DNA from: Candidatus Dormiibacterota bacterium
GTDB taxonomy: Bacteria > Chloroflexota > Dormibacteria > Aeolococcales > Aeolococcaceae
Length of the DNA: 64,000 nucleotides
Direction: 5' to 3'
Assembly: GCA_036561525.1 (NCBI GenBank)
Contig: DATBPD010000100.1
Span: 2,164 to 66,163, forward strand
The notes below the pieces were generated by a model. It worked only from the letters and a program-made list of their open reading frames with translations, was not told where the DNA came from and did no database searches. This document shows, one piece after another, positions 1,991-5,238 of this stretch. A program made the position numbers and the translations under genes. The first letter of the stretch is position 1. Each line of letters begins with the position of its first letter.

Positions 1991-3433
1991 TCAGCCGACC
2001 GACACCACGGCGGCAGCGATGGCCGCAGCACGGGCGGGATCGCGCAGCACGCGCAGGAACGGCTGGCGGCGCTCCTCCCACTGCTGGGCTGCCGCGACCA
2101 GCTCGGGGTGGCCTTCGATGAAATGCGTGGTGTAGTCACCCGCGATGAAGTCAGGGTCGCTGAGGACGGCGAGGTGATACGCGATGTTGGTGCTGATGCC
2201 GACGATCGCGTACTCGAGCAGCGCGCGACGCATGCGTGCTGTCGCCAGCTCGCGGGTCGGTCCCCAGGTGATCAGCTTGGCGATCATCGGGTCGTAGTTG
2301 GGCGACACCATGCCCGGCGCGGCCAGGGAGGAATCGACGCGCACGCCGGGGCCGCTGGGCTCGCGATAGCCGGTGACCTGTCCCGGCGACGGCATGAAGT
2401 TCTTCTCGTACTTCTCCGCGTTGACCCTGCACTCGATGGCGTGGCCGCACGGCACCAGGCCCTCCTGGCGCAGTGTCAGCTTCTCGCCGGCGGCGATGCG
2501 CAACTGCTCGACGACGAGGTCGACGCCGTAGACCAGCTCGGTCACCGGGTGCTCCACCTGCAGGCGGGTGTTCATCTCGAGGAAGAAGAACTCGCCCTTG
2601 CTGTAGATGAACTCGACAGTACCGGCGTTGACGTAGCCGACGGCTCGCGCTGCGGTGACCGCGGCCTCGCCCATCCGCGCCCGCGTGGCTGCGTCGATCG
2701 TCGGCGACGGTGCCTCCTCGAGGATCTTCTGGTGGCGGCGCTGGATCGAGCATTCGCGCTCGCCGAGGTGGACGATATTGCCGTAGGTGTCGGCGAGCAC
2801 CTGGATCTCGATGTGTCGCGGCGACTCGACGTAGCGCTCGAGGAACACGGTGGCGTTGCCGAAGGCGCGCTGCGCGGTGCTCTTCGCGGTCTCGAGGCTC
2901 TCACGCAGCTCGCCCTCGTCGCCAGCGACGCGCATGCCGATGCCGCCTCCGCCTGCCGAGGCTTTGATGAGCACCGGGTAGCCGACCTCGTTGGCGGCCG
3001 CCACGGCCGACTCCACGTCGTCGAGCGCGTCGCTGCCGGGCACGATCGGAACGCCGCTGTCGCGCATGCGCTGGCGCGCCGGCACCTTCTCGCCCATCGC
3101 CGCCATCGCCTCGGGGGTGGGGCCGATGAAGACGATGCCGCTGTCGGCGCAGGCGCGCGCGAACGCCTGGTTCTCGCTGAGGAAGCCGTAACCGGGGTGA
3201 ATCGCCTGCGCGCCGGTGGATGTGGCCGCCTCGATGATGCGCTCGATCACCAGGTAGGACTGTGCCGACGGAGCCGGCCCGATCTCGACGGCCTCGTCGG
3301 CGAGCAGAACGAACGCTGCGGTGCGATCCGCCTCGCTGTGGACCGCGACGGTGGCGATGCCGAGGTCGCGGCAGCCGCGGATCACGCGCAGCGCGATCTC
3401 GCCGCGGTTGGCGATCAGCACCTTGGTGAACAT
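1991..3433 (-). CDS. accC: Biotin carboxylase (AccC/PycA-type)
   Basis: KVLIANRGEIA, HPGYGFLSEN, KASAGGGGIG, ERECSIQRRHQK and EMNTRLQVEHPVTE motifs are all intact. Confidence 0.95.
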   Translation of the reverse strand: MFTKVLIANRGEIALRVIRGCRDLGIATVAVHSEADRTAAFVLLADEAVEIGPAPSAQSYLVIERIIEAATSTGAQAIHPGYGFLSENQAFARACADSGIVFIGPTPEAMAAMGEKVPARQRMRDSGVPIVPGSDALDDVESAVAAANEVGYPVLIKASAGGGGIGMRVAGDEGELRESLETAKSTAQRAFGNATVFLERYVESPRHIEIQVLADTYGNIVHLGERECSIQRRHQKILEEAPSPTIDAATRARMGEAAVTAARAVGYVNAGTVEFIYSKGEFFFLEMNTRLQVEHPVTELVYGVDLVVEQLRIAAGEKLTLRQEGLVPCGHAIECRVNAEKYEKNFMPSPGQVTGYREPSGPGVRVDSSLAAPGMVSPNYDPMIAKLITWGPTRELATARMRRALLEYAIVGISTNIAYHLAVLSDPDFIAGDYTTHFIEGHPELVAAAQQWEERRQPFLRVLRDPARAAAIAAAVVSVG

Positions 3434-5238
3434 CAGTCGACCTGCACGATCGGGGCGCGAGGACCGACCACGTCGCCCTCCTTGACGTGCACCTCAGTGA
3501 CGGTGCCGGCGCGCGTGGCGGTGACGTCGTTCTGCATCTTCATCGCCTCCAGCACGGCGACCACGTCGCCGAGCCCAACGGTGTCACCAATCTTGACGGC
3601 AACCTTGAGGATCAGGCCCTGCATGGGCGCGATGACGGTGCCGTCGCGAACCGCGCGCACCCCTGCGGGCGCTGCATCACCGGATGGCGCGCCATTGGCC
3701 GCACCGCCACCGAGCCCGGCGCCGAAGACACGCACGCTGTAGCTCTGGCCGTCGACCTCGACCGTGAGGTCGCGGATGTCAGCGGCCGGGGCGTCGGGGG
3801 CGCCCTCGCCGGCCAGCGCGGTCACCTCGGTGCCGTCATCGGATGCCGCAGCGTCCGGGTCGGGGGGCGGGGCGGGCTCGTCGCCAAGTCGCTCAGGCAC
3901 GACCTCACCGCGCAGCAGCGCCAGCGTTTCCGCCGGGAACAGGGCAAAGCTGACGACGGTGGCGTCATCCGGTTTGTCGATGCCCTCGCGCCGCAGCTCG
4001 CGGCGCAGCGTCGGCAGCGCCGGCTCGAGGAGATCGGCGGGGCGGATGGTGATCGGCTCCTCGCGGCCGTTGACCAGCCGTCGCACCGAGGGGTCGATCG
4101 GGTACGGCGGCGATCCGTAGAGGCCCAGACAGTAGTCCTTCACCTCCTGGCTGACGGTGGCATAACGGTCGCCGTCGCACACGTTGTAGACGGCCTGGGT
4201 GGCGACGATCTCGATGATCGGCGACACCAGCGGCGGGTGGCCGAGCTCGGCGCGCACGCGTTGGGCTTCGATCTCGACGTCGTCGAGACGGTCGAGCTGG
4301 TCGCGGTCGCGCAGCTCCTCGAGCGCGTGGCCCATCGCGGCGGGCGGGAGCTGGCCGCGCAGCGCCGCACTGTCGATGTGCAGCGCGGGGACGTCGATCA
4401 CTGCCGCATAGGCGGTCAGCTGGTGCTCCAGCTCGGCTGACGCGGCGGTGACGTCGCCGAGGTTCAGACCGGTGTCGAGCTCGGTGCCGCGGAGCGCGGC
4501 GATGACGCCCTCGGCCGGTGGCACGCTGGCGCCGCCGGCCAACGGCGCAAGCGCAACGTCGAGGCGGGACGCGCCGGCGATGGCGGCGGCGTAGGCGGCG
4601 AACTCCGCCTGTCCGGTCTGCGCGGACAGCGACAGTGACACGGGCAGCTTGGTCGCTTCGACCAGCCGGCGGACGAGGTCGCCGACGCGGGCCACGCCGA
4701 GCAGCCCGAGCGGGTCATGGACGCAGATGGTGTCGGCGCCGAGGCCGGTCAGCTCTTCGGCGAGGGCGACGATCTGGTCGGGGTCGTGTCGCGGTGAGTC
4801 CGCGTAGATGATCGCGGCCTCCACCTGGCGCTTCGCCTCGCGAGCGGCCTGGATGGCGCGGCTGAGGTTGCGCACGTCGTTGAGCGGGTCGTGGATGCGA
4901 AAGCGATCCACCCCGGCGTCGGCGGCGACACGGATGAACGCCTCGACCACGTCATCGCCCACCTGGCGGTGGCCGGTCAGCGCCTGGCCGCCGAGCGACG
5001 CCTGCAACGTGCTCGAGGGAGCGGCCTCGCGGATGGCGCGGAGCCGCTCGAACGGATCCTCGCCGAGGAATCGCAGGGACGCCTCGAAGGTGGATCCCCC
5101 GAAGACGTCGAGAGCAGCGAAGCCGCAGCCATCCAGCGCTCGCGCCACCGGGATGGCGTGCCGGCTGCGCAGGCGGCTCAGCAGCAGCGCCTGCTGTCCG
5201 GCCCGCAGCGAGCATTCGACAAGCTCGAGACGCGGCAT
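3433..5238 (-). CDS. Pyruvate carboxylase subunit B / OadA-like protein with C-terminal biotinyl domain; catalytic residues degenerate
   Basis: FGGSTFEASLRFLGEDPFERL, RAELGHPPLVSP and RPADLLEP align with PycB; EAMKM biotin motif present; stop overlaps the accC start (TGATG). Confidence 0.85.
   Translation of the reverse strand: MPRLELVECSLRAGQQALLLSRLRSRHAIPVARALDGCGFAALDVFGGSTFEASLRFLGEDPFERLRAIREAAPSSTLQASLGGQALTGHRQVGDDVVEAFIRVAADAGVDRFRIHDPLNDVRNLSRAIQAAREAKRQVEAAIIYADSPRHDPDQIVALAEELTGLGADTICVHDPLGLLGVARVGDLVRRLVEATKLPVSLSLSAQTGQAEFAAYAAAIAGASRLDVALAPLAGGASVPPAEGVIAALRGTELDTGLNLGDVTAASAELEHQLTAYAAVIDVPALHIDSAALRGQLPPAAMGHALEELRDRDQLDRLDDVEIEAQRVRAELGHPPLVSPIIEIVATQAVYNVCDGDRYATVSQEVKDYCLGLYGSPPYPIDPSVRRLVNGREEPITIRPADLLEPALPTLRRELRREGIDKPDDATVVSFALFPAETLALLRGEVVPERLGDEPAPPPDPDAAASDDGTEVTALAGEGAPDAPAADIRDLTVEVDGQSYSVRVFGAGLGGGAANGAPSGDAAPAGVRAVRDGTVIAPMQGLILKVAVKIGDTVGLGDVVAVLEAMKMQNDVTATRAGTVTEVHVKEGDVVGPRAPIVQVD

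Follow-up and report, generated by a model that had tools for sequence, protein, structure and literature searches.

The window analysed here is a stretch of 64,000 nucleotides on contig C100 (DATBPD010000100.1) of a Dormibacteria genome bin (GCA_036561525.1; 2.56 Mb, 84% complete); its GC content is high (~70%). The minus strand of the window carries three co-oriented genes, i.e., a gene for a protein resembling pyruvate carboxylase subunit B and OadA (PycB/OadA-like; P0001), followed by a biotin carboxylase (BC) gene (P0002) and an open reading frame (ORF) of 236 amino acids (aa). Judged from its sequence, P0001 is a PycB/OadA-type protein without a metal centre and with an intact biotin arm, and the most likely function of the P0001/BC pair is to supply CO2 to carboxyltransferases (CTs) encoded elsewhere, and not to form oxaloacetate. 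On balance, and with limited confidence, P0001 would thus serve as a scaffold without catalytic function, to which BC docks and on which a shared biotin carboxyl carrier protein (BCCP) domain is tethered, and carboxybiotin would be delivered in trans from this domain; the physical docking of BC, the delivery in trans, and the lack of pyruvate carboxylation are what we infer in this proposal. The host is an uncultured soil bacterium of the Dormibacteria, and its closest named relatives are Candidatus Dormibacter/Dormibacteraeota and Ca. Aeolococcus gillhamiae.

The ORF of P0001 (601 aa, zero internal stops) could be aligned over its full length with the two-subunit pyruvate carboxylase (PC) of Methylobacillus flagellatus, namely with its beta subunit (5ks8_C, E 6.7e-114). 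A preliminary description of the locus, made from the DNA alone, had listed catalytic substitutions along this protein, and each of them was recovered in the 5ks8_C alignment: RDGHQS is changed to RAGQQA (aa 12–17), LLRGQN to SLGGQA (aa 81–86), IKDMAS to VHDPLG (aa 173–178), HLHAH to SLSLS (aa 201–205), QVPGGM to QLPPAAM (aa 296–302), and PLVTP to PLVSP (aa 336–340). The divalent-metal ligands (Asp, carbamyl-Lys, and His-x-His) are accordingly replaced by A13, H174, S203, and S205, and the substrate Arg of LLRGQN is G83. The biotinylation motif EAMKM is kept (aa 564–568) within a domain matched by Biotin_lipoyl (PF00364, E 1.9e-15); the intact frame, the perfect motif, and the TGATG coupling to BC given in the same description were all found as stated (shared base at the gene junction gtcgacTGATGttc, in which TGA and ATG have one base in common). 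Among the NCBIfam models, P0001 passes the domain-level model NF006761 only (487 bits, cut-off 402) and remains under every PycB/OadA/5S equivalog cut-off (TIGR01108, 455 of 756 bits; PRK14041, 358 of 734 bits; PRK12330, 281 of 827 bits). P0001 lacks the catalytic traits by which the PycB/OadA/5S family is defined and should therefore not be listed among the pyruvate carboxylases.

According to an AlphaFold2 model, P0001 keeps the PC/OadA CT fold, i.e., a TIM barrel followed by a funnel. The mean predicted local distance difference test score (pLDDT) was 80.9, with the barrel mostly at 85–98 and the BCCP domain (aa 531–601) at 86–93; low values were obtained for the former active-site loops (aa 13–19, pLDDT < 50) and for two parts of the linker (aa 466–494 and 506–527, pLDDT < 50). 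Foldseek placed 5ks8_C on top (E 1.5e-50), and Vibrio cholerae OadA (2nx9) was matched with a template modelling (TM) score of 0.91 and a root mean square deviation of 2.5 Å.

Homologues were searched among 5.8 billion proteins, which yielded ~120 clusters at 60–91% identity, almost all from Dormibacteria. Full-length relatives (n = 121, 45–91% identity) included 115 sequences from the cluster search and the orthologues of a second family of the order (f2, 45–48% identity; the family of the source genome is f1). The complete canonical metal set occurs in none of the 121 clade members. In all of the 115 relatives from the cluster search, the metal Asp and the Lys are absent and EAMKM is invariant; both His are absent in almost all of them. 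The f2 orthologues represent an intermediate form (RHGQQT, LRGQA, [LF]FDPAG, SVHCA), in which the Arg and one His survive and a His occupies the Asp position.

The clade was compared position by position with 38 canonical PycB/OadA sequences, using the 76 CT positions at which the latter are conserved to 90% or more. Forty-six of these positions are unchanged in the clade, including R12, Q16, D175, and T339 (R548, Q552, D719, and T882 of Rhizobium etli PC), and 30 differ, 16 by a new conserved residue and 14 by being variable. All five metal and substrate positions are among the 30 differing ones (hypergeometric p ~0.008). The conserved replacements include K174H, H203S, W46F, W63F, M80A, Y90H, G299P, M301A, N304H, and Q308E, and the variable class includes D13, R83, and H205. 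At the catalytic positions themselves the replacement varies within the clade (D13 to A/H/Q/G/L, R83 to G/A/R, K174 to H/Y/F, H205 to S/A/V; position 83 is Gly in 75 sequences, Ala in 29, and Arg in 17), and the neighbours of the lost residues are invariant (G14, Q15, Q16, G84, Q85, D175, P176). We read varying replacements beside invariant neighbours as a sign that catalytic constraint was probably lost with no new catalytic set taking its place. Position 339, which is Ser in P0001, is Thr in ~100 and Ser in 14 of the 115 relatives.

Ratios of nonsynonymous to synonymous substitution rates (dN/dS) were computed within the genus at dS 0.5–0.7 and amounted to 0.12–0.21 for the barrel, 0.10–0.20 for the funnel, 0.23–0.53 for the linker, 0.07–0.23 for the BCCP domain, and 0.06–0.12 for BC. 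As dN/dS is low and the frame, EAMKM, and the substitutions are common to the relatives, the barrel is maintained and not decaying; this agrees with the preliminary description, which had taken the protein for a maintained one. Pseudogene decay or an assembly artefact, in favour of which the loss of catalytic residues and nothing else could be cited, was consequently rejected and given a negligible probability (frame intact in 121 relatives, barrel dN/dS as above, EAMKM invariant, BC coupling conserved).

A tree built from cluster representatives recovered the degenerate Dormibacteria sequences as a monophyletic group (support 99), which adjoins sequences with canonical ligands. Twenty-one out of 106 full-length cluster representatives retain two or fewer of the four metal ligands and have an intact MKM motif, and the phenomenon may therefore reach well beyond the phylum of the Dormibacteria. 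Many of the distant representatives (P0123–P0254) are without two to four metal ligands and keep EAMKM or EAMKL, and they fall into several separate clades of the tree.

The BC gene had been described as fully conserved, and this was borne out by all three Pfam domains, which score above their cut-offs (Biotin_carb_N 158, ATP-grasp 260, and Biotin_carb_C 134 bits), by TIGR00514 (657 bits, cut-off 626.5), by the match to Escherichia coli AccC (1bnc, E 9e-151), and by intact catalytic motifs (KASAGGGG, ERECSIQRRHQK, EMNTRLQVEHPVTE, ECRVNAE). Its C-terminal Ala-rich helix ([AV]AAIAAA) has been conserved across the two families of the order. No second BC was detected by tblastn across the whole source genome at its 84% completeness. 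In a survey of 41 relatives' genomes of the order (10 genera), exactly one Biotin_carb_C match was found in 35, two in 2, and none in 4 genomes, three of which are less than 85% complete; wherever both lie on one contig, BC adjoins the single PYC_OADA match.

The sole further biotinyl domain retrieved from the source genome by tblastn is a 70-aa carrier of the PRK05889 type with the motif ESMKM (C25:13313-13522, plus strand). This small BCCP is present in 24 of the 25 f1 genomes and absent from all 15 genomes of the sister genera g9 and g10; in G037 (a single contig) and G040, all other Biotin_lipoyl matches are lipoyl domains (TDKx/TEKA motifs). In the g9 and g10 genomes (15 of 15), no biotinyl domain other than that of the PycB-like protein was thus found, and the BC next to it is the sole BC. 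A partial second copy of the 70-aa carrier lies at a contig edge of the source genome, right after a PccB-type CT (C115:3-71, minus strand; 78% identity over 23 aa). In one relative, a second BC is located ~2.5 kb from the small BCCP (G021:C6:32654-35710); this arrangement points to a three-part acyl-CoA carboxylase module of the classical kind, from which most sister genomes have lost the BC.

Several separate CT genes, for which a search of the genome had been suggested, were found. The source genome encodes fabH-accD-accA in tandem (C79:6316-9004; accD and accA overlap in different frames) and four genes of the PccB/MccB type, i.e., one PccB-type CT close to methylmalonyl-CoA mutase, one MccB-type CT next to a gene resembling HMG-CoA lyase, and two more PccB paralogues; contigs with such CTs include C28 and C112. 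Neither BC nor BCCP adjoins any of these genes, and no accB or accC was found near fabH-accD-accA on C79. The same equipment (accD/accA plus PccB- and MccB-type CTs) was present in three of three surveyed g9/g10 genomes (G037, G040, G029) and in G025 of the same family, with 4–6 Carboxyl_trans (PF01039) matches per genome. The preliminary proposal of a pseudoenzyme scaffold that carries carboxybiotin to a transferase encoded elsewhere thereby gains support, at the level of gene content, from orphan CTs, a sole BC, and, in g9/g10, a sole carrier.

In the mechanism proposed here, P0001 would derive from the beta subunit of a two-subunit PC, would have lost its catalytic activity, and would have been kept for two indispensable jobs, namely binding BC and tethering the biotinylated BCCP. 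A BirA enzyme would biotinylate K567 (a ligase motif of the BirA type, GRGRQSRPW...KWPND, is present in the source genome on C35), and BC, seated on the dead-CT scaffold, would carboxylate the K567 biotin with ATP and bicarbonate. Docking could be achieved by packing of the terminal Ala-rich helix of BC into a BT-like domain formed with the conserved hairpin of P0001 (aa 488–505), which would be the contribution of P0001 to this domain and in which R489, E494, V495, G497, and V502 are invariant in the clade. The BCCP would then swing on the disordered linker of ~85 residues and hand the carboxyl group over in trans, not to its own barrel. The putative acceptors are AccD/AccA by fabH (malonyl-CoA), the PccB-type CT by methylmalonyl-CoA mutase, and the MccB-type CT by HMG-CoA lyase; oxaloacetate would come from ATP-dependent phosphoenolpyruvate carboxykinase (ATP-PEPCK) or malic enzyme instead. 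Extended to the whole order, with the dead barrel as the scaffold of the one BC and of a biotin carrier that is the main one, or in some genera the only one, and from which the acetyl-, propionyl-, and methylcrotonyl-CoA CTs draw in trans, and with the third-gene protein of f1 perhaps serving as an adaptor or as a component of a new acceptor site, the proposal falls slightly short of an even chance.

Other Dormibacterota in which the canonical D/R/K/HxH residues are kept (e.g., Ca. Dormiibacter inghamiae) also have one BC per genome. The shared-BC state therefore predates the loss of the metal site, and this order of events would explain why a dead subunit could not be discarded. Among these ligand-keeping sequences, four loci (L056, L063, L081, L089; Ca. 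Dormiibacter inghamiae being an example), each with a single BC, show KDTSG or KDTGG at the KDMAG site, together with PLVAP or PLLAP, in which Ala has taken the place of the catalytic Thr; such Thr-to-Ala forms may have another specificity or may be a step towards loss. A further locus (L058) combines the ligands with canonical KDMAG and PLVTP and a single BC. Near-identical PycB-like proteins with Lys changed to Glu (IEDVAG) and with PMAAP were seen in three bins labelled Acidoferrum, Chloroflexi CF_106, and Limnocylindrales (L062, L064, L065); Asp, Arg, and HxH are kept, BC is adjacent, and there is one BC per genome.

The third gene, which is an addition to the preliminary description, starts 20 nt after the BC stop and directly follows BC in nine of nine f1 loci examined; it is absent from f2 loci. 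Only 27 homologues were retrieved among the 5.8e9 proteins, and the gene is lineage-restricted. Its product is 25–56% identical within the genus, where BC is 90% identical, and dN/dS of the closest pairs was 0.25–0.30; because of this fast divergence, the gene is missed by the synteny BLAST at E 1e-8. The AlphaFold2 model (pLDDT 91.2) has a class I small-molecule methyltransferase fold (Rossmann-like), and Foldseek matched it to OxaG, GtmA, YcgJ, BioC, and JHAMT (E 1e-12 to 1e-9, 10–19% identity). The Gly-rich motif I (E/DxGxGxG) is degenerate (DVLGDAG, with the last Gly alone invariant), Methyltransf_25 scores 19.9 bits under a cut-off of 27, and the invariant residues sit in the motifs AEQL, DVARFD, and ADGTLRIP. 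An identity as BioC was rejected, as BioC scores were insignificant (E 0.003–0.26); a BioB signature was not found by a motif scan of the source genome (84% complete). The protein may be an adaptor, an accessory subunit, or an enzyme. Since f2 lacks the gene, the proposed delivery of carboxybiotin by the P0001/BC pair would not need it.

Several observations weigh against a non-catalytic scaffold. Family f1, to which the source genome belongs, has the second, 70-aa BCCP that could serve the CoA carboxyltransferases instead, and the shared-carrier role in the source genome is hence reached by parsimony and is not forced. The beta hexamers of propionyl-CoA and methylcrotonyl-CoA carboxylases usually depend on a BT domain carried by the alpha subunit of the same enzyme. 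The cell must obtain oxaloacetate in some way, and phosphoenolpyruvate carboxylase (PEPC) is absent from 8 of 10 genomes and GTP-dependent PEPCK from 10 of 10; ATP-PEPCK is present in 13 of 14 genomes and malic enzyme in 9 of 10. PEPC as a stand-in for the lost PC was ruled out as a simple compensation, as it is absent in most genomes. The scaffold proposal does not account for the conserved methyltransferase-fold gene of f1, and the conserved replacements in the barrel leave a remodelled pocket possible. As a separate observation, the ATP-type PEPCK of the order is markedly divergent (own genome C23:27275-28639 and relatives; ~250 bits against PF01293), and the ATP-PEPCK of Dormibacterota with canonical PycB ligands reaches 675–734 bits against the same model.

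The last point on the barrel leads to the rival that we consider unlikely but the most serious, in which P0001 is a remodelled CT or decarboxylase, metal-independent or differently liganded, that acts on a new acceptor, possibly assisted in f1 by the methyltransferase-fold protein, with BC merely being shared. The retention of R12, Q16, and Thr/Ser339 together with 16 canonical positions that have acquired a new conserved residue (K174H, H203S, G299P, M301A, N304H, and Q308E among them) fits a remodelled functional pocket, dN/dS is in the same low range for the barrel and the BCCP domain, f2 retains the Arg and one His and has a His at the Asp position, and the third gene is lineage-restricted and conserved in f1. 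However, the positions expected to be catalytic vary within the clade, the predicted active-site loops are of low confidence, and we know of no metal-free DRE-TIM carboxyltransferase; moreover, f2 is without the methyltransferase-fold gene, which also diverges very rapidly, and the BCCP of g9/g10 must serve the CoA carboxyltransferases anyway. Some of the same residues could speak for a barrel that acts as a ligand sensor or as a biotin-parking domain regulating BC or carboxybiotin, e.g., by binding pyruvate, oxaloacetate, or acyl-CoA without turnover: the pocket-lining Q15, Q16, Q85, D175, and T208–G209 are invariant in the clade, and R12, Q16, and T339, which contact substrate and biotin in PC according to studies of the R. 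etli enzyme, are kept. Residue invariance is equally explicable by fold stability, though, and the low loop pLDDT argues against a well-formed pocket, so that we hold this explanation to be improbable.

An ordinary two-subunit PC that tolerates the substitutions is what the annotation as "pyruvate carboxylase subunit B" in all sources, the passed NF006761 domain model, and the scarcity of PEPC and GTP-PEPCK would suggest. Yet P0001 has none of the four metal ligands and no pyruvate Arg, the protein stays below every PycB/OadA equivalog cut-off, mutation of metal or substrate residues abolishes activity in characterised PCs, and ATP-PEPCK and malic enzyme are available; we therefore assign it a very low probability.

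In all biotin carboxylases described to our knowledge, the BCCP is either paired with an active CT or is free-standing or fused to BC. The best sequence and structural match to P0001 is the two-subunit PC (PycA/PycB of M. flagellatus, 5ks8, and Pseudomonas aeruginosa), with which it shares the order of TIM-barrel CT, funnel, hairpin, and BCCP, a separate BC subunit, and adjacent genes; the Ala-rich C-terminal helix of P0002 also resembles the central helix of its BT-like domain. P0001 differs from this enzyme in having other residues at the sites of the metal Asp, the carbamyl-Lys, the two His, and the substrate Arg and PAA at that of GGM, in the gene order (CT-BCCP, then BC), in BC being the sole BC of the genome, and in a predicted two-strand hairpin compared with four strands in the M. 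flagellatus enzyme. OadA (2nx9, see above) and the transcarboxylase 5S subunit (1rqb, TM 0.85) have the same CT fold, and OadA likewise ends in a biotinyl domain; unlike these, P0001 is without the metal site and is paired with a BC, which is absent from the decarboxylases. No membrane partners of the OadB/OadG type were seen next to the P0001 gene.

In actinobacterial acyl-CoA carboxylases, a shared alpha subunit of the AccA3 type (BC-BT-BCCP) supplies several CTs. Chloroflexus has a BC1 (BC-BCCP) with separate CT alpha and beta subunits, and heteromeric acetyl-CoA carboxylases with unusual fusions exist (PMC11077971). One BC/BCCP unit for several CTs is also what is proposed here, but in the AccA3-type and BC1 proteins the BCCP is fused to BC via a BT domain or hairpin, whereas in the Dormibacteria it resides on a degenerate pyruvate-type CT and BC is a separate chain. 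The P0001/BC pair probably works like such a shared BC/BCCP module, and it descends from PycA/PycB.

A single promiscuous BC that serves a PCT-PT-BCCP subunit and separate CoA carboxyltransferases was hypothesised for archaea and the cenancestor by Lombard & Moreira 2011 (PMC3199775). The presence of one BC per genome across Dormibacterota fits this model; in the model, however, the PCT is an active enzyme and the CoA CTs are supplied by an independent BCCP, whereas here the PCT would be dead and two genera are without an independent BCCP. A pyruvate-type CT that is dead and a carrier function that persists would be one step beyond that state (PMC3199775). The preliminary description had suggested an undescribed carboxylase architecture. 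This holds for the dead CT as carrier and scaffold, of which no description was found in the full-text literature (searched for biotin or pyruvate carboxylase of Dormibacter(ota) and for CT pseudoenzymes), and it does not hold for the shared promiscuous BC, which is already part of the archaeal hypothesis (PMC3199775); the novelty would lie solely in a dead CT that is kept in these two roles.

If the scaffold proposal is true, the organisation of the holoenzyme would be a so far undescribed one among biotin-dependent carboxylases, and P0001 would provide a clear case of a pseudoenzyme that was retained since one of its modules had become indispensable to other enzymes. It would also allow the state with one promiscuous BC, as proposed for early biotin enzymes, to be tested in an extant lineage, and the annotation "pyruvate carboxylase subunit B" and the anaplerosis inferred from it would have to be corrected for the clade (~120 sequence clusters).

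Coordinates of the carboxylase locus and its parts within the window
Feature	Position	Strand	Remarks
P0001, PycB/OadA-like gene (601 aa), degenerate carboxyltransferase-linker-BCCP	3433..5238	(-)	Pfam HMGL-like, PYC_OADA, Biotin_lipoyl
TIM-barrel (HMGL-like) domain, aa 1–290	4369..5238	(-)	replaced residues A13, G83, H174, S203, S205
Funnel / PYC_OADA domain, aa 291–445	3904..4368	(-)	
Ala/Pro/Gly/Asp-rich flexible linker, aa 446–530	3649..3903	(-)	
Conserved beta-hairpin inside the linker, aa 488–505	3724..3777	(-)	AlphaFold2 strands E488–495 and E498–505
Biotinyl (BCCP) domain, aa 531–601	3436..3648	(-)	
K567 codon, predicted biotin site	3538..3540	(-)	within EAMKM
TGATG stop/start overlap	3431..3435	(-)	PycB-like gene and BC
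P0002, biotin carboxylase (480 aa)	1991..3433	(-)	
BC C-terminal Ala-rich hydrophobic helix	1994..2035	(-)	ARAAAIAAAVVSVG, extreme end of the protein
Third gene, methyltransferase-fold protein (236 aa)	1260..1970	(-)	GTG start

No Rfam match was obtained for positions 1–12000 of the window, and a promoter and terminator scan of positions 1700–5600 returned none. The genes upstream of P0001 resemble RidA, PurE, PurD, GuaA, and IMPDH; the neighbourhood of PurD and IMPDH was seen again in relatives and has no functional relation to the carboxylase pair. In relatives, the PycB-like gene and BC overlap by 1 nt or 4 nt or are separated by a 6-nt gap.

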